IMG/VR virus record: IMGVR_UViG_2529292920_000008
Source: a virus
Lineage: Duplodnaviria > Heunggongvirae > Uroviricota > Caudoviricetes
Length of the DNA: 18,300 nt
Direction: 5' to 3' (one strand)
A program made the translations under genes and the position numbers. The stretch's first letter is position 1, and each line of letters starts with the position of its first letter. The notes beneath the pieces were generated by a model. The model was given only the letters and a program-made list of their open reading frames with translations, did no database searches and was not told where the DNA came from. This document shows positions 6,934 to 12,824 of the stretch, piece after piece.

Positions 6934-7648
6934 GTTAATAAATGGCAATGCCATAAAAATGACAAGCATTGAAATCGCTGAGTTGGTTGGTAAGCGTCAT
7001 GACAATGTGAAACGTACCATCGAAACGCTGGCTAAAAATGGTGTTATCCGGCTTCCTCAAATTGAGGATTGTGGAAGAATCAATGGGTTAGGCTTAAATC
7101 AAAGTTTTTGTGTGTATGTATTCGAAGGCGAACAAGGAAAGCGAGACAGTATTGTCGTTGTAGCCCAGTTGTCGCCGGAATTCACGGCTCGCCTTGTTGA
7201 CCGTTGGCGAGAGCTTGAAGAAGCTGCGGTTAATATCCCAAAAACGCTACCAGAAGCGTTGCGCCTTGCTGCTGACCTTGCTGAGCAGAAAATGCAACTG
7301 GAAAACCAGCTAGCAATTGCCGCACCTAAAGTTGAGTTTGCCGATCGCGTTGGCGAGGCCAGCGGAATTTTGATTGGAAACTTTGCAAAGGTTGTTGGAA
7401 TTGGTCCAAACAAACTGTTTGCGTGGATGCGCGATCACAAAATCCTTATTGCTTCAGGTTCCCGGCGCAATGTGCCAATGCAGGAATATATGGATCGCGG
7501 CTATTTCACAGTGAAAGAAACAGCGGTCAACACAAATCACGGAATACAGATATCGTTCACCACAAAAATCACCGGGTGTGGTCAACAGTGGCTGACCAGA
7601 AAGCTGCTCGATAACGGAATGCTGAAAGTAACAGGGGAGGCTGCTTAA
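6926..7648 (+). CDS. phage antirepressor-type protein (Rha-like N-terminal region plus AntB/KilAC-like C-terminal domain)
   Basis: 240 aa. N-terminal MTSIEIAELVGKRHDNVKRTIETL resembles the Rha regulatory motif; C-terminal half resembles Ant-type antirepressor C-domains. Family assignment from memory. Confidence 0.7.
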   Translation: MNELINGNAIKMTSIEIAELVGKRHDNVKRTIETLAKNGVIRLPQIEDCGRINGLGLNQSFCVYVFEGEQGKRDSIVVVAQLSPEFTARLVDRWRELEEAAVNIPKTLPEALRLAADLAEQKMQLENQLAIAAPKVEFADRVGEASGILIGNFAKVVGIGPNKLFAWMRDHKILIASGSRRNVPMQEYMDRGYFTVKETAVNTNHGIQISFTTKITGCGQQWLTRKLLDNGMLKVTGEAA

Positions 7649-7938
7649 TGGCTAACCTACGCAAAGAAGCTCGCGGCAGAGAATGCCAGGTACGTATTTA
7701 CGGCGTATGCAATGGCAACCCTGAAACTACAGTTCTGGCACATTACCGGATGGCTGGAATTTGCGGAACGGGAATGAAGCCTGACGACCTGATCGGCGCA
7801 TGGGCTTGTAGCGCGTGTCACGATGAAATCGACCGACGCACCCATAACCTCGACAACAAAGACGCCAGACTTTACCACCTCGAAGGCGTGATCAGGACGC
7901 AGGCGATACTGCTGAAGGAGGGGAAGATTAAGCCATGA
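7648..7938 (+). CDS. YbcO-like protein (DUF1364, Cys/His-rich putative nuclease of the nin region)
   Basis: 96 aa with ARGRECQVRIYGVCNGNPETTVLAHYR and WACSACHDEIDRRTH motifs, matching recalled DLP12 YbcO. Immediately precedes rusA, as in DLP12. Confidence 0.75.
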   Translation: MANLRKEARGRECQVRIYGVCNGNPETTVLAHYRMAGICGTGMKPDDLIGAWACSACHDEIDRRTHNLDNKDARLYHLEGVIRTQAILLKEGKIKP

Positions 7939-8297
7939 ACGAATATCAGTTTGTGCTTCCATACCCGCCGTCGGTGAATACCTACTGGCGAAGACGGGGA
8001 GGCCAATACTACATCAGCGATAAAGGCCAGAAATACCGAAAAGACGTTCAGCAAATCATTCGCCAACTCAAGTTAGACATTTTCACCAAATCACGACTCC
8101 GTATCAAAGTCATCGCAGACGTTCCAGACTCCCGCCGCCGCGACCTCGACAACATCCTGAAAGGTTTACTCGACTCCCTTATCCACGCCGGATTTGCGGA
8201 AGACGACGAGCAATTCGATGACATTCGCGTAATTCGTGGTGTGAAAGTACCAGGCGGAAGGCTTGGAATAAAAATCACCGAACTGGAGAACACATGA
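7935..8297 (+). CDS. rusA: RusA-family Holliday junction resolvase
   Basis: 120 aa with LPYPPSVNTYW, RRRDLDN and GGRLGIKITE motifs typical of RusA. ATGA overlap with the YbcO-like gene. Confidence 0.9.
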   Translation: MNEYQFVLPYPPSVNTYWRRRGGQYYISDKGQKYRKDVQQIIRQLKLDIFTKSRLRIKVIADVPDSRRRDLDNILKGLLDSLIHAGFAEDDEQFDDIRVIRGVKVPGGRLGIKITELENT

Positions 8298-8428
8298 ACA
8301 AAGCATTCGAACGATATATGCGCCAGCGTTATGGCAATCGCTACGATCTTACCCGCGATGCTTACGGCTTCTACTGTCGTGAGGTTGTGAAACGAATGTT
8401 TGAAGTGTGGTGTCATTGCAAAGGATAG
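8294..8428 (+). CDS. small hypothetical protein (44 aa), translationally coupled to rusA, in the position of DLP12 ylcG
   Basis: ATG 8294 overlaps the rusA stop (ATGA). Product MNKAFERYMRQRYGNRYDLTRDAYGFYCREVVKRMFEVWCHCKG; stop TAG at 8426-8428. Below the ORF-track length cutoff. Confidence 0.45.
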   Translation: MNKAFERYMRQRYGNRYDLTRDAYGFYCREVVKRMFEVWCHCKG

Positions 8429-8439
8429 AGGGGAAGACG

Positions 8440-9063
8440 ATGAGACTCGAAAGCGTAGCTAAATTTCATTCGCCAAAAAGCCCGATGATGAGCGACTCAC
8501 CACGGGCCACGGCTTCTGACTCTCTTTCCGGTACTGATGTGATGGCTGCTATGGGGATGGCGCAATCACAAGCCGGATTCGGAATGGCTGCATTCTGCGG
8601 TAAGCACGAACTCAGCCAGAACGACAAACAAAAGGCTATCAACTATCTGATGCAATTTGCACACAAGGTATCGGGGAAATACCGTGGCGTGGCAAAGCTT
8701 GAAGGAAATACTAAGGCAAAGGTACTGCAAGTGCTCGCAACATTCGCTTATGCGGATTATTGCCGTAGTGCCGCGACGCCGGGCGCAAGATGCAGAGATT
8801 GCCACGGTACAGGCCGTGCGGTTGATATAGCCAAAACAGAGCAGTGGGGGATAGTTGCTGAGAAAGAGTGCGGAAGATGTAAAGGCGTCGGTTATTCAAG
8901 AATGCCAGCAAGCGCCGCATATCGCGCTGTGACGATGCTAATCCCAAACCTTACCCAACCCACCTGGTCACGCACTGTTAAGCCGCTGTATGACGCTCTG
9001 GTTGTGCAATGCCACAAGGAAGAGTCAATCGCAGACAACATTTTGAATGCGATCACACGTTAG
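8440..9063 (+). CDS. Q: late gene antiterminator Q (lambda type)
   Basis: 207 aa from MRLESVAKFHSPKSPMMSDSPRATASD..., near-identical to lambda Q as recalled. The ORF-track start at 8407 is an upstream extension. Confidence 0.95.
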   Translation: MRLESVAKFHSPKSPMMSDSPRATASDSLSGTDVMAAMGMAQSQAGFGMAAFCGKHELSQNDKQKAINYLMQFAHKVSGKYRGVAKLEGNTKAKVLQVLATFAYADYCRSAATPGARCRDCHGTGRAVDIAKTEQWGIVAEKECGRCKGVGYSRMPASAAYRAVTMLIPNLTQPTWSRTVKPLYDALVVQCHKEESIADNILNAITR

Positions 9064-9099
9064 CGCCATGATTGCCACGGATGGCAACATATTAACGGC

Positions 9100-9160
9100 A
9101 TAATATTGACTTTTTGAATAACTTTGGGGAAACTTGACACCAATAATGGGCGTTTTTTAC
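9100..9160 (+). promoter_or_regulatory. late promoter PR' with qut-like region (lambda-like)
   Basis: ATTGACTTTTTGAATAACTTTGGGGAAACTTGACACCAATAATGGGCG closely parallels the lambda PR'/qut sequence as recalled. -35 TTGACT at 9107-9112, 17-bp spacer, -10-like GAAACT. Confidence 0.5.
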
Positions 9161-9300
9161 ATGTCATTGATGAGTCTCAATAACCTGCCGCCGAGTAGTT
9201 TTTATGCTCTGAATTGTATTTGTGTAGTAAACATGCTGACTGCAATGTAATAGAGTTTTTTTAGCCTGTAACCTCTTGACGGCATTGAATTGCTTTTGTT

Positions 9301-10059
9301 ATGAGTTGTAAGCCAATGTTATCATCTTGTATTGGGGTGGTTATGAAGGATGGTGCACTGCTCAGGAGTTCTTCACTTTTTATTGCCTACATGGGATGCC
9401 TTGGATGGGGGAGTGCTTATTTCTATGGATGGGGTACTTCTTTTTACTACGGCTTCCCATGGTGGATTGTAGGTGCAGGTGTTGATGATGTTGCCAGAAG
9501 TTTATTTTTTGCAGTTATCGTCATTGCTATATTTCTTATCGGTTGGGGTATTGGTGTTGTATTCTTTTTCGCAGTGAAAAGAAAACATTCTATGCAAGAG
9601 CTAAATGTATTTCGCCTTTATTTTGCTGTGGAATTATTGTTTGTGCCGGCAATTATTGAGTTTTCTATATTGAGACAGAAGATTCAGGTACCTCTTTTGC
9701 TACTGTCAGCAGCGATTGCGCTGGCGGTTACAATTTCGATAAGATCTTATGGGCGATTTTTATCGGTATCATGCTTCTATGATAAGCCATTTATAAAAAA
9801 ACATTTTTTTGAGATTGTGATGATTGCTTTTGTGGCATATTTTGGGCTTTTTTCATTTCTGACAGGATATTACAAACCACAGTTTAAGAAAGAATATGAA
9901 ATGATTAATTATAATGATGGTTGGTATTATGTTCTTGCTCGTTATGATAATTGTCTGGTTTTGTCTACTTCTTTCAATGCAGGTAGTAAAAGGTTTGTCA
10001 TTTATCAATCAGCACAAGATAAGAATCTTCAGGTTGATATTGTAAGGACCAGAATTTAA
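9301..10059 (+). CDS. hypothetical multi-pass inner-membrane protein; moron between PR' and the lysis cassette
   Basis: 252-aa ORF (alternative start ATG 9343 behind GGGGTGG) with about 5 hydrophobic helices (e.g. LFFAVIVIAIFLIGWGIGVVFFFAV) and a ~50-aa hydrophilic C-terminal tail. AT-rich relative to flanking genes. No family recognised. Confidence 0.6.
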   Translation: MSCKPMLSSCIGVVMKDGALLRSSSLFIAYMGCLGWGSAYFYGWGTSFYYGFPWWIVGAGVDDVARSLFFAVIVIAIFLIGWGIGVVFFFAVKRKHSMQELNVFRLYFAVELLFVPAIIEFSILRQKIQVPLLLLSAAIALAVTISIRSYGRFLSVSCFYDKPFIKKHFFEIVMIAFVAYFGLFSFLTGYYKPQFKKEYEMINYNDGWYYVLARYDNCLVLSTSFNAGSKRFVIYQSAQDKNLQVDIVRTRI

Positions 10060-10489
10060 TTGGCTGCATAAATAATATTTTAAGTTGCAAGTTGGCTATT
10101 CGTAGGAATAGAACCTTAGGCATGCTGAATGCGTTTTCTGAACATTGTTTTATAAACTGTGTCTGCTTGCTGTTGTGATCCTGCTTTTAGTGATGGTGAT
10201 GATGGATTTCACCAGCAGGATAATGTTGGTACTGACTGATGGCGCTCTGGTCTGCGGCATTGTGGTATTGCTGTGGCCGATGATGAAAGAACAGAATGAA
10301 TAATCCTTGACTTTTTTGTTTACTGTTTATTAAAAAATCAACCGCATGGTGAATCCTCCTTGGAGGGGCTAAATGATCGAGTTTTAAGGGCACGTAGCGA
10401 GTTCTGTTTGATCATTGCAGAACTTAGCGGGAGGCGCCATGCGTACATCACTAATGTTATTTCCTTCTATCATTTTCCTTGTGAGTTCT

Positions 10490-10516
10490 GGCTGCGCATG
10501 GCGCGGCCTTTTTTTT
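10490..10516 (+). terminator. intrinsic terminator, plus strand (tR'-like candidate)
   Basis: 8-bp stem GGCTGCGC/GCGCGGCC (one G-U pair), 3-nt loop, followed by eight T residues. Confidence 0.6.
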
Positions 10517-10692
10517 ATGACCTGCCACTGGCAGATGGTCATCCTGTGATTTGATTCCGGTTCCGGCTTTTTAACTCTGTTCCTGTACACGGGAGAAATT
10601 CTATGTCGATTAATCGTTATGATATTGGTTACAAGAAGTACCACGTATTGTGTTGAGATAGAAAGCATGGTGCCAGAGGTAAATGCAGCAGC

Positions 10693-10745
10693 ATAATAAA
10701 AAAGAGCCAGCGCAGAAGAGAACGGGTAAAAGAGTCTGCGCTGGC
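10693..10745 (-). terminator. intrinsic terminator, minus strand
   Basis: Perfect 11-bp inverted repeat GCCAGCGCAGA / TCTGCGCTGGC (10706-10716 with 10735-10745), 18-nt loop, followed on the minus strand by CUCUUUUUUAUUAU. Confidence 0.45.
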
Positions 10746-10861
10746 GTGGGGATATTCCCCGTGGAGAAATGATATGTAACACACATCGGGAACCTTTCTA
10801 TATAAACATTATCATTATTGTCAATCATAACAGTCAGGTATTATGACGTTTATGCATCAGG

Positions 10862-10893
10862 GCCATCAGGAATTAACTGGTGGCTTTTTATTG
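10862..10893 (+). terminator. intrinsic terminator, plus strand, just upstream of the holin gene
   Basis: 8-bp stem GCCATCAG/CTGGTGGC (one G-U pair), 7-nt loop, then TTTTTATTG. Confidence 0.5.
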
Positions 10894-10924
10894 TTGTCAG
10901 CTTCCGGATAACGGGAGACGGAGT

Positions 10925-11140
10925 ATGTATCAGATGGAAAAAATCACAACAGGTGTGTCATACACCACGTCAGCGGTGGGGACGGGATACTGGTTACTGC
11001 AGCTGCTGGACAAAGTCTCTCCGTCCCAGTGGGTGGCAATAGGTGTGCTGGGAAGTCTGCTGTTTGGCCTGCTGACGTATCTGACAAATCTTTATTTCAA
11101 GATTAAAGAAGATAAGCGTAAGGCTGCGAGAGGTGAATAA
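10925..11140 (+). CDS. class II holin / pinholin (phage 21 S-like) with dual-start motif
   Basis: 71 aa [71 protein letters not shown]: two TM segments, Met1/Met4 dual start, charged C-terminus; resembles S21 as recalled. GGGAGACGGAG Shine-Dalgarno. Confidence 0.85.
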
Positions 11141-11637
11141 TGTCGCCGTCATTACGCAAGGCTGTTGCAGCTGCTATTGGTGGTGGGGCTGTTGCCATAG
11201 CGTCTGTGCTCATCACTGGTCCAGGTGGTAACGATGGTCTGGAAGGTGTCAGCTACATACCATACAAAGATATCGTTGGCGTATGGACTGTATGTCACGG
11301 ACACACCGGAAAAGACATCATGCCCGGTAAAACGTATACCGAAGCAGAATGCAAAGCCCTCCTGAATAAAGACCTTGCCACGGTCGCCAGACAAATTAAC
11401 CCGTACATCAACGTCGATATACCGGAAACAACGCGCGGCGCTCTTTACTCGTTCGTTTACAACGTGGGCGCTGGCAATTTCAGAACATCGACGCTTCTTC
11501 GCAAAATAAACCAGGGTGATATCAAAGGCGCATGTGACCAGCTACGTCGCTGGACATACGCTGGCGGTAAGCAATGGAAAGGGCTGATGACCCGTCGTGA
11601 TATTGAGCGTGAAGTCTGTTTGTGGGGGCAGCAATGA
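11140..11637 (+). CDS. SAR endolysin (lysozyme with N-terminal signal-anchor-release domain, R21-like)
   Basis: 165 aa with a Gly/Ala-rich weakly hydrophobic N-terminus ([20 protein letters not shown]) followed by a lysozyme-like domain. Directly follows the pinholin, a known functional pairing. Confidence 0.85.
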
Positions 11638-12101
11638 GCAGGGTAACCGCGATTATCTCCGCTCTGGTTATTTGCATCATCCTCTGCCTGTCATGGGCTG
11701 TTAATCATTACCGTGATAACGCCATCGCCTACAAAGAGCAGCGTGATAAAAAAGTCAGTGAGCTGAAGCAGGCGACCGCCACCATTACTGACATGCAGCA
11801 ACGCCAGCGTGCTGCTGATGTACTCGATGCTAAATACACGAAGGAGTTAGCCAATGCGAAAGCTGAAAATGATGCTCTTCGGCGTAAGCTTGATAATGGT
11901 GGTCGGGTGCTCGTCAAAGGAAAATGCCCTGTGCCAGCCTCAGCCAAAACCTCCAGCTCCTCCGGCATGGGCAATGATGCCACCGTCGAACTCTCTTCAG
12001 TTGCTGGACGAAACGTTCTCGGTATCCGGGACGGAATTATCCGTGACCAAACAGCACTGAGAACGCTTCAGGAGTACATCAGGACGCAATGCCTGAAATA
12101 A
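11634..12101 (+). CDS. Rz: Rz i-spanin (N-terminus lambda-like, C-terminal half diverged)
   Basis: [31 protein letters not shown]... matches lambda Rz over roughly the first 100 residues as recalled; the C-terminus differs. ATGA overlap with the endolysin stop. Confidence 0.9.
11854..12060 (+). CDS. Rz1: Rz1 o-spanin lipoprotein, embedded in the +1 frame of Rz
   Basis: [21 protein letters not shown]...: signal peptide with lipobox-like VVGC and a proline-rich mature region ([12 protein letters not shown]). Embedded arrangement typical of Rz/Rz1. Confidence 0.8.
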
Positions 12102-12133
12102 TTTTTTTGCAAATCACAAAGTCAATTTAATGA

Positions 12134-12156
12134 GCCTCGCGATGCGGGGCTTTTTT
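12134..12156 (+). terminator. intrinsic terminator after the lysis cassette
   Basis: 7-bp stem GCCTCGC/GCGGGGC (one G-U pair), 3-nt loop, followed by TTTTTT. Confidence 0.6.
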
Positions 12157-12299
12157 ATGTCCGCAGTAAACGCGCATCTCACGCGCATATTAACGAGAGC
12201 CTTTCAGTAAGCGAGCCTGAGAAATGCCGTTATAGGTGGCGACCTCTCTCGGGCGGCTTTTCTGTGAGACAGGCTCACTTTCTAAAAGGTAAAGACGCT

Positions 12300-12824
12300 A
12301 TGAATAATCATTCAGTTATTCCAGCCTTCGACTTCCGAGAAATGGTGCAAGCCAAAAACGGAGAGGTCGTTACCACATCCAGAAAAATTGCCAAGTACTT
12401 CGGCAAGCGACACGGTGATGTTCTCAGGAAAATCGAGCAGGTTAAGGCTGATTGCTCGCGTGAGTTTAGCCAACGCAATTTTGCGTCGGCTGATTATATC
12501 GATGAGCAGGGCAAGGTTCGCCCGATGTACAGCCTGACGAAAGATGGCTGGATCATGGTTGTGATGGGGTTCACCGGGAAAGCTGCTGCGGCAATCAAGG
12601 AGAGCTATATCGCAGCATTCAACTGGATGGCAGAGCAACTGAGCCGCCGCATGGCAATTGGCGAAGAAATGCAGCACCGCTACGCCATCAAAGAAACACG
12701 CTCAAAGCTGAAAGGTACGATCGGCAGTCGGTTAATGAACGAACGGAAGAAAGAGAAGCGTGTCCTGGCTGTCGAGCATGAATACATTTTGCAGGTGACA
12801 CAGCCTGAACTGCTGATTAATTGA
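12300..12824 (+). CDS. Rha-family phage regulatory protein
   Basis: N-terminal VVTTSRKIAKYFGKRHGDVLRKIEQV matches the Rha N-terminal motif. Start taken at ATG 12300 (the ORF track gives GTG 12264). Sits between the lysis cassette and cos. Confidence 0.7.
   Translation: MNNHSVIPAFDFREMVQAKNGEVVTTSRKIAKYFGKRHGDVLRKIEQVKADCSREFSQRNFASADYIDEQGKVRPMYSLTKDGWIMVVMGFTGKAAAAIKESYIAAFNWMAEQLSRRMAIGEEMQHRYAIKETRSKLKGTIGSRLMNERKKEKRVLAVEHEYILQVTQPELLIN

Follow-up and report, generated by a model that had tools for sequence, protein, structure and literature searches.

Convergent genes for the Hfq-dependent small RNAs PasD1 and EcOnc32 upstream of the holin gene in a lambdoid Escherichia coli prophage

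Gene organization of the interval

The window, i.e. the whole 18.3-kb stretch of DNA analysed here, represents the late region of a lambdoid Escherichia coli prophage. Its interval at positions 10060-10924 contains, in this order, a DUF3927 gene, the gene for the small RNA (sRNA) PasD1, a scar left by the deletion of nanS-p, the gene for the sRNA EcOnc32 with its promoter, and a plus-strand terminator; the holin gene is located beyond the interval and is followed by the genes for a signal-arrest-release endolysin and spanins (Table 1). The two sRNA genes, both known from experiments, take up approximately one-third of the interval. A previous reading, made from the letters of the sequence only, had described the interval as noncoding and without a convincing protein gene, a description contradicted by the DUF3927 gene and PasD1. 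As a whole, the interval is best explained as a convergent PasD1/EcOnc32 pair in which EcOnc32 is a paralogue of the sRNA Esr41 and acts on entC, an explanation in which we place considerable confidence.

Positions 7084-12584 of the window share 99.4% identity with prophage PP4 of E2348/69, an enteropathogenic E. coli (EPEC) strain, with a single mismatch (position 10289) in the interval, and the EcOnc32 segment is identical to that of prophage Sp3 in the enterohaemorrhagic E. coli (EHEC) strain Sakai. Because the sequences are nearly identical there, published experiments on E2348/69 and Sakai apply directly to the window; the corresponding coordinates are obtained by adding 1,049,916 (E2348/69, NC_011601) or 890,882 (Sakai Sp3, NC_002695.2) to those of the window. 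The interval is present at >=99.8% identity in 563 of 5,426 complete E. coli genomes. A tRNA scan of the window identified no genes, and the tRNA genes that are frequent at this site in Shiga toxin (Stx) phages are thus absent. Rfam gave zero matches in the whole window at gathering thresholds, and the leads described below came solely from a scan based on E-values.

Table 1. Positions of the features identified in and around the interval (window coordinates, unless a locus is given)
Feature	Position	Strand	Basis and remarks
Antiterminator Q gene	8407-9063		Pfam Antiterm match
Membrane-protein gene, 252 amino acids	9301-10059		
Moron genes	9301-10303		Between Q and PasD1
DUF3927/TciB-like small membrane protein gene, 52 amino acids, TTG start	10145-10303	+	Pfam PF13064, Prokaryotic Genome Annotation Pipeline (PGAP), phage 434
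Phage 434 counterpart of the DUF3927 gene	L001 3086-3244		
Candidate PasD1 promoter	-35 TTGACT 10307-10312; weak AT-rich -10 ~10329-10335	+	Sequence reading compared with the published start (10344); inferred
PasD1 sRNA, 173 nt	10344-10516	+	Published general feature format file, probe, seed; Hfq-dependent, STnc100-like
Annotated 'hypothetical protein' open reading frame (ORF), 132 amino acids (ECs0817 / E2348C_1013 / WP_012578864.1)	10384-10782	-	Most likely spurious
PasD1 terminator	Stem 10490-10508, T-run to 10516	+	Scan; -15.2 kcal/mol, z = -2.75
nanS-p (sialate O-acetylesterase gene) deletion scar	10603-10696	+	BLAST against E2348/69 PP2 and phage 434
EcOnc32 sRNA	~10790-10697	-	Esr41 paralogue by homology; 3' end 10697, 5' end inferred at ~10787-10790
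EcOnc32 hairpin 1	10787-10771	-	
EcOnc32 single-stranded anti-Shine-Dalgarno seed, CAUUUCUCCAC	10771-10761	-	
EcOnc32 hairpin 2 (middle, GGGG/CCCC), GGGGAAUAUCCCC	10760-10748	-	
EcOnc32 terminator	11-bp stem 10706-10716 with 10735-10745, 18-nt loop, U6 10703-10698	-	-21.2 kcal/mol, z = -7.1
Terminator directly upstream of the holin gene	Stem 10859-10887, T-run to 10893	+	Scan; -15.7 kcal/mol, z = -3.9
Phage-21-type class II holin (pinholin) gene	10925-11140	+	Pfam PF04971, 111.9 bits; PGAP; downstream edge of the interval

Minus-strand sRNA EcOnc32 and its promoter

The sequence-only reading had predicted a minus-strand sRNA of ~95 nt, transcribed from a TTGACA/TATAGA promoter and ending at a terminator at 10693-10745, and published data on the identical sequence identify this RNA as EcOnc32. 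In Table S2 of Tree et al. 2014, EcOnc32 appears as a peak of Hfq-CRAC (UV cross-linking and analysis of cDNA) at Sakai 901574-901662 on the minus strand of Sp3, with a Northern size of ~112 nt; it is also flagged in an extra column, which is read here as 'overlaps an annotated coding sequence (CDS)'. The Northern probe (ATATTCCCCGTGGAGAAATGATATGTAACACACAT) corresponds exactly to plus-strand positions 10753-10787 of the window, and a covariance model of EcOnc32 variants gave the Sakai copy (L088 2075-2173, minus strand) 125.5 bits, with the same score and letters as the window. In EPEC RNA-seq data, EcOnc32 is scored under the 'CDS' E2348C_1013, with a baseMean of 2,064 and a log2 fold change of -2.9 in the delta-hfq mutant (adjusted P = 1e-23); the baseMean of the adjacent holin gene is 5. 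[quoted passage not shown] The RIL-seq fragments, at 1060613-1060672 on the minus strand, correspond to window positions 10697-10756, and all end at 10697, the end of the terminator U tract. These data on the identical sequence show that the minus-strand RNA exists and depends on Hfq, and together with the sequence, in which its own promoter and a terminator with a U tail are seen, they give it the traits of an Hfq-dependent trans-acting sRNA, including Hfq-dependent abundance and the RNA2 position.

The same strand could be read as the 5' end of a real protein gene, i.e. the 132-codon ORF running from 10782 to 10384, rather than as an sRNA. Although this ORF is open throughout and has been annotated by both GenBank and PGAP in Sakai, E2348/69, O26, and O111, a strong terminator (z = -7.1) lies 37-85 nt into it, and RNA fragments end there. 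The ORF is antisense to PasD1, and its continuity was created by the nanS-p deletion junction; in prophage PP2 of E2348/69, which has an intact nanS-p, the equivalent is a frameshifted fragment. No Pfam family was matched by the ORF above threshold, and the RNA beneath it is always RNA2 in chimeras, as sRNAs are. A protein gene at this position is, in our estimation, highly improbable.

A 107-nt minus-strand RNA was predicted to fold into three hairpins at -34.9 kcal/mol (z = -5.2), and none of 200 shuffled sequences was as stable. The hairpin with the sequence GGGGAAUAUCCCC, taken by the earlier reading for the 5' hairpin, is placed in the middle by this fold.

The promoter is present, with TTGACA at 10824-10819, a 16-nt spacer, and TATAGA at 10802-10797; our promoter scan had dropped it solely because the -10 hexamer lacks the final T. 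The -35 hexamer and the spacing are conserved in the Esr41 promoter and in two variants of the element, V2 and V3, which were distinguished from the window type (V1) in the survey described below. An upstream candidate, CTGACT-18-GATAAT (10837-10808), was rejected as the main promoter; unlike TTGACA-16-TATAGA, it is not conserved in V2 or at Esr41, although it would suit the ~112-nt Northern size better. The spacer between the -35 and -10 hexamers also contains a Fur-box-like 19-mer, AATAATGATAATGTTTATA (10819-10801), which agrees with the consensus GATAATGATAATCATTATC in 15 of 19 positions, the highest agreement of any site in the window. Block shuffles reached this level in 3.5% of cases and local shuffles in 0.15%, which suggests that the EcOnc32 promoter may be iron-dependent, i.e. 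controlled by Fur.

Relationship of EcOnc32 to Esr41

The Rfam model of Esr41 (RF02676) was aligned over its full length (1-74) at 10696-10785 on the minus strand, with 32.3 bits and an E-value of 1.1e-3. A covariance model, R1, built from six EcOnc32-type variants with the Esr41 sequence excluded, finds Esr41 of the O157 SpLE1 island at full length (30.8 bits, E = 4.5e-6), with three helices aligned. The homology extends from the -35 hexamer (ATTGACAA) to the terminator, at ~64% over 87 columns, and ends there. In the minimum free energy folds, both RNAs have three hairpins and a single-stranded seed, UUUCUCCA, that separates hairpin 1 from hairpin 2; Esr41 reads CAUUUUCUCCAUGGGG in this single-stranded stretch and EcOnc32 reads CAUUUCUCCACGGGG, and the halves of both RNAs in hybrids obtained by CLASH (cross-linking, ligation, and sequencing of hybrids) come from it. 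The middle hairpin of V3 (GGGGUAUAUCCCU) is intermediate between that of the window (GGGGAAUAUCCCC) and that of Esr41 (GGGGUAUUCCCU). In a low-diversity set of 8 distinct variants, 88.7% of cells were paired, compared with <=52% in slid controls; a single double change was seen, and shuffles scored as high. Judged by the model alignments, EcOnc32 is a diverged paralogue of Esr41, and not a member of the Rfam family as curated. By inspection only, a site in chuA (CAUGGAGAA) pairs with 9 nt of Esr41 (UUCUCCAUG) and has one mismatch with EcOnc32 (UUCUCCACG).

Plus-strand sRNA PasD1 and the DUF3927 gene

The annotation of Pearl Mizrahi et al. 2021 places pasD1 at NC_011601 1060260-1060432 on the plus strand, i.e. 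at window positions 10344-10516; PasD1 is associated with Hfq and is a homologue of EHEC EcOnc13. The PasD1 Northern probe (CATGCGCAGCCAGAACTCACAAGG) is the reverse complement of positions 10477-10500, and the seed UGUGAG at 10480-10485 matches the published seed exactly. Rfam STnc100 (RF02076) was aligned at 10314-10519 on the plus strand with 37.7 bits (E = 4.3e-6), under the gathering score of 47, and this sub-threshold match is in line with the relationship in structure that Zhu, Shabalina and Storz 2026 reported. A 36-amino acid frame at 10439-10549 on the plus strand has a GGGAGG Shine-Dalgarno sequence and an N-terminus resembling a signal peptide or lipobox (MRTSLMLFPSIIFLVSSGC). The stop codon of this frame lies beyond the 3' end of PasD1, and in the predicted PasD1 fold the long 5' stem contains its Shine-Dalgarno sequence and AUG in paired form. 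A ribosome profiling (RIBOseq) study gives a coverage of 2.16 for a copy of STnc100 located at EDL933 902843; this copy may be the 36-amino acid frame/PasD1 locus.

The earlier reading had also offered a type I toxin-antitoxin-like pair, in which a hydrophobic peptide (58 amino acids from 10786, or the 36-amino acid frame) would be held under an antisense RNA. Small hydrophobic ORFs do occur on both strands, the transcripts are convergent, and the 36-amino acid frame has a Shine-Dalgarno-like GGGAGG and a broad lipobox, to which the RIBOseq coverage might be added if it stems from this locus; however, PasD1 (ending at 10516) and EcOnc32 (ending at 10697) are separated by a gap of 180 nt and do not overlap. 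Neither frame meets an in-frame stop within its transcript: both extend further than the RNA, the 58-amino acid frame running through the terminator, and the Shine-Dalgarno sequence and AUG of the other are predicted to be buried. No type I toxin or antitoxin family was matched in the window in Rfam or Pfam, and both PasD1 and EcOnc32 have many trans partners on Hfq. A toxin-antitoxin pair of this type thus has, in our view, only a minute chance of being correct.

The 52-amino acid protein encoded upstream of PasD1 matches Pfam PF13064 (DUF3927) with 53 bits (E = 3e-14; cutoff, 25), and PGAP also annotates a DUF3927 family protein there. The 36-amino acid ORF noted by the sequence-only reading at 10193-10303 does exist, but as the C-terminal part of this gene rather than as a separate small ORF. 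In phages 434 and 2B8, the DUF3927 protein is annotated as TciB, 'inhibition of cell division or resistance to colicin'. Esr41 gives resistance to colicins Ia and Ib via repression of cirA, and a tie between this activity and the TciB gene neighbouring EcOnc32 may or may not exist.

Intrinsic terminators

All three intrinsic terminators proposed from the sequence were recovered within a few bases of their predicted places, each with a hairpin and a U-tract. The minus-strand terminator has an 18-nt loop and was missed by our consensus scan, in which the loop was limited to 8 nt; the scan identified 4 terminator-like sites in 2 kb, compared with 1.6 +/- 1.2 in shuffled sequences. The terminator at 10859-10893 is conserved (~93%) upstream of the holin (pinholin) gene in Stx phages, and a terminator is annotated at the equivalent place in phage 434. 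It is likely to insulate the lysis cassette from un-antiterminated transcription in the lysogen; no RNA ending there is on record. A weak promoter-like site on the plus strand, GTGCCA-16-CATAAT (10670-10697; 9/12), could drive an antisense RNA of EcOnc32 that ends at this terminator. The count of such matches in the region is at chance level, and no RNA is on record there.

The nanS-p scar and distribution of EcOnc32

In the scar, the first 25 nt of nanS-p (10603-10627) are fused to its last 69 nt (10628-10696), which include the stop codon TAA (10694-10696). The intact gene is 1,851 bp in PP2 and phage 434, and 1,754 bp of it have been lost. The junction 10627|10628 corresponds to 1440|3195 of locus L007, and the microhomology GATGTT is present at both breakpoints in the intact PP2 copy. 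The EcOnc32 terminator begins one base after the nanS-p stop codon.

Of the 5,426 complete E. coli genomes, 603 contain EcOnc32 and its promoter, and the identity is >=99% in 564 of these; the carriers include O157:H7, O55:H7, O26, O111, and O127:H6; Esr41 proper is present in 695 E. coli genomes. Three variants were recognized in a survey of 71 IMG/VR contigs. The window type, V1, accounts for 58 contigs, in all of which nanS-p is deleted and in which PasD is usually present. V2 was found in nine, with no PasD or nanS-p nearby, and V3 in four, beside an intact nanS-p and the holin gene. To judge from these sequences, V3 shows what would be the ancestral arrangement, in which nanS-p and the sRNA gene are convergent and share an intergenic terminator. 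A V2-type copy is located directly downstream of stx2B in two related genomes. Diverged EcOnc32-type copies occur right after stx2B in Stx2e/i-type prophages, i.e. at 1541-1640 of L013 (STEC306) and 1473-1578 of L014 (a CFIA Stx2i strain); one has a change in the seed (UUUAUCC), and hairpin 1 is replaced in the other. In the phage database, EcOnc32 was found in one record, phage Evi, and phages 434 and 2B8 share only the left 570 bp and the terminator. When a single genome of each species was scanned for an exact pattern, matches came from E. coli and Shigella flexneri only, both of the Esr41 type, which gives a lower bound on the distribution.

Interaction with entC and proposed function

In EPEC, RIL-seq yielded 263 chimeras of EcOnc32 with the 5' untranslated region (UTR) of entC (P = 4e-165), and in Sakai, RNase E-CLASH yielded hybrids of ECs0632 (entC) and EcOnc32 at a false discovery rate of 5e-6. 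In a CLASH read, ...UUUUGUGGAGGAUGAUAUGGAUAC of entC is joined to AUAUCAUUUCUCCACGGGGAAU, the EcOnc32 half. Ligation of EcOnc32 to the entC 5' UTR in vivo has thus been shown in both EPEC and EHEC by two independent methods. The recovered entC fragment spans the Shine-Dalgarno sequence and the start codon. Whole-length RNAduplex gave meaningless long duplexes with z near 0, and a windowed search was used instead. In that search, EcOnc32 nt 9-32 and entC -12 to +10 were predicted to form a duplex of ~21 pairs, with CAUAUCAUUUCUCCAC / GUGGAGGAUGAUAUG pairing, at -25.4 kcal/mol, compared with -14.1 +/- 2.9 kcal/mol (best, -21.2) for shuffled entC targets. Esr41 gave -15.8 kcal/mol on the same site, no better than the shuffles, and only entC stood out among the targets.

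According to this model, EcOnc32 most likely blocks the translation of entC rather than controlling lysis. The interval is best seen as the 'moron' slot that separates the Q antiterminator/pR' region from the lysis cassette. It carries a convergent pair of genes for Hfq-dependent trans-acting sRNAs, which have the nanS-p scar between them and of which both possess a sigma-70 promoter and an intrinsic terminator. The U tail of the EcOnc32 terminator would bind Hfq, with the aid of which the sRNA would pair across the Shine-Dalgarno sequence and start codon of entC and occlude the ribosome-binding site. Translation of the enterobactin operon entCEBAH would be blocked in this way, a role in iron homeostasis parallel to that of Esr41, which represses cirA, chuA, and bfr; the EcOnc32 promoter is possibly controlled by Fur. 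The 10859-10893 terminator would keep un-antiterminated transcription out of the holin gene in the lysogen, and late transcription modified by Q would read through all three terminators.

Regulation of the lysis genes, also suggested by the sequence-only reading, has no support: the partners on record are all host or effector mRNAs, and no lysis gene is among them. A related possibility is that EcOnc32 mainly acts in cis, tuning holin expression or lysis timing by pairing with the Q-antiterminated late transcript or by convergent transcription. Its gene is embedded in the late transcription unit on the opposite strand, with 135 nt between it and the holin start downstream, so that complementarity is perfect, and the position beside the holin gene is kept in all variants. 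On the other hand, all recorded EcOnc32 partners are trans targets from non-induced cultures, the paralogue Esr41 works in trans from a non-phage island, and unrelated sRNA heads (PasA, PasC) occupy the slot in some relatives. We consider a mainly cis-acting role improbable.

Instead of acting via its few mRNA targets, EcOnc32 might chiefly serve as an abundant ligand of Hfq and, as a competitor or sponge, change how active the core sRNAs are. Approximately 808,000 of 18.2 million fragments carry EcOnc32 (read, by our interpretation, from the column 'other interactions of RNA2' in Table S3 of the RIL-seq study, in which the Pas sRNAs have 24,000-66,000), of which ~1,200 are in significant chimeras. 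Because so few are in significant chimeras, target regulation may not be the main activity of EcOnc32, and its occupancy of Hfq may be very heavy. Its Hfq-CRAC read score of 64.7 million, compared with 23-34 million for EcOnc10-14, is the highest in the rows of Tree et al. considered here, and the neighbouring prophage sRNAs AgvB and AsxR are anti-sRNAs. Nevertheless, EcOnc32 has zero sRNA interactions in Table S5 of the RIL-seq study, and two methods both recovered its specific and extended pairing with entC. That EcOnc32 works chiefly as such a ligand is in our judgement unlikely.

Besides this small share of significant chimeras, several observations weigh against the explanation of the interval as a PasD1/EcOnc32 pair with an Esr41 paralogue acting on entC. 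By Rfam gathering scores, PasD1 is not STnc100 (37.7 vs. 47 bits) and EcOnc32 is not Esr41 (32.3 vs. 102 bits). Covariation across the 8 variants was not significant, with one double change and shuffles scoring as high in a set of low diversity, and the support for the structure is therefore confined to thermodynamics and homology. At ~112 nt, the Northern size is larger than the 91-94 nt that the TATAGA -10 hexamer would predict. The predicted duplexes with the rpoS leader, which has 537 RIL-seq chimeras with EcOnc32, and with dnaK and nleB-region RNA are no better than shuffles, and we found no published measurement of entC repression by EcOnc32. The Fur-box match drops to 11/19 in V2, and repression of siderophore synthesis from a Fur-derepressed promoter is counter-intuitive.

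Previous descriptions and implications

The elements of the interval are already known: EcOnc32 was described in 2014, PasD1 in 2021, and the convergent pair at the moron site in 2014. EcOnc32 is confined to supplementary tables, without a described function, and our full-text literature search found no paper on EcOnc32, ECs0817, or E2348C_1013. Neither entC nor EcOnc32 is mentioned in the main texts of the two interactome papers, and Zhu et al. note only that matches to the Esr41 model are frequent near pasD. We found no paper stating the paralogy with Esr41, the agreement of the two interactomes on entC, the Fur-like operator, or the misannotation as a protein gene. As a consequence of the 132-amino acid annotation, which hundreds of genomes still carry at the EcOnc32 locus as a hypothetical protein, an abundant sRNA was counted as a CDS in the EPEC RIL-seq study and left out of its list of new sRNAs. 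The present case indicates that a real sRNA gene, including its promoter and terminator, can be located by reading the sequence only.

Given the paralogy with Esr41 and the Fur-like operator, an influence of the prophage on siderophore synthesis can be tested directly in both EPEC and EHEC. We tentatively propose, at somewhat less than even odds, that EcOnc32 is a phage-borne Esr41 paralogue, possibly under Fur control and among the most abundant Hfq ligands in EPEC and EHEC, which shuts down enterobactin synthesis via the entC ribosome-binding site; that the slot swaps sRNA heads (PasA, PasC, and EcOnc32) on a shared terminator; and that Esr41 of SpLE1 is an escaped copy. If so, many attaching-and-effacing E. 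coli strains (~11% of complete genomes) would carry a second prophage-encoded brake on iron acquisition.

Comparison with known sRNA systems

EcOnc32 of Sakai Sp3 shows no difference of substance from the window element and is the same element in another host, sharing as neighbours Q, the membrane-protein gene, and the ORF ECs0817, followed by the holin, endolysin, and spanin genes. In Sp3 and in PP4 of E2348/69, as in the window, the gene has the Q/membrane-protein genes on one side and the pinholin gene on the other, and the late operon is on the opposite strand.

Esr41 (EcOnc14), encoded on the SpLE1 island of EHEC, shares with EcOnc32 the promoter layout with the ATTGACAA -35 hexamer, the 5' hairpin, and three hairpins in total. 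Both have the single-stranded CAUUU(U)CUCCA(Y)GGGG seed used in CLASH hybrids and a GCCRGC terminator with a U tail, and both are Hfq-dependent. Their targets are related to iron, i.e. cirA, chuA, and bfr for Esr41 and entC for EcOnc32; Esr41, a regulator of virulence as well as iron, has effects on fliC and LEE too. The two differ in the terminator loop (18 nt in EcOnc32 and 5-7 nt in Esr41), in the seed, in which EcOnc32 has one U deleted and one U-to-C change, and in the sequence of hairpin 1, the EcOnc32 version of which is predicted to supply the extra pairing with entC. EcOnc32 is located in a lambdoid late region, whereas Esr41 is found in SpLE1 near iha and ter (~1.9 kb from iha in O157).

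In the PasD1/PasD2 systems described by Pearl Mizrahi et al. 2021 and by Zhu, Shabalina and Storz 2026, pasD is located downstream of Q and the DUF3927 gene, the same arrangement as in the window. After pasD, PP2 and phage genomes carry an intact sialate esterase gene and next to it pasA or pasC, whereas in the window the esterase gene is deleted and EcOnc32 is the convergent partner. PasA and PasC are minus-strand sRNAs between nanS-p and the holin gene, in the same slot and orientation as EcOnc32, but their body and seed are unrelated to it (PasA seed, GCCAGCACCU). The identity of the window element with PasA or PasC, expected from the synteny of Zhu et al., was rejected; the PasA seed and terminator sequence and the PasC sequence are absent from the window. 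In phage 434 and PP2, the stop codon of nanS-p is immediately followed by a terminator homologous to that of EcOnc32 (R1, 20 bits, terminator only). Because this homologous terminator serves PasA/PasC-type RNAs in 434 and PP2, the slot between nanS-p and the holin gene looks like an exchange site for sRNA bodies.

The anti-sRNAs AgvB and AsxR, encoded at the moron site of Sp5, Sp10, and Sp17, are likewise convergent Hfq-binding sRNAs between a moron CDS and the lysis genes. They are 51-60 nt in length and target sRNAs, whereas EcOnc32 has no recorded sRNA partner, and neither family was matched in the window by Rfam, either at the gathering threshold or at E <= 10. For Sp3 and seven further prophages, Tree et al. 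2014 described convergent pairs of Hfq-binding sRNAs at the moron site, in the region from downstream of pR' to the lysis genes, and the window has the same layout, i.e. Q, a moron CDS, PasD1 on the plus strand, EcOnc32 on the minus strand, and the lysis genes.

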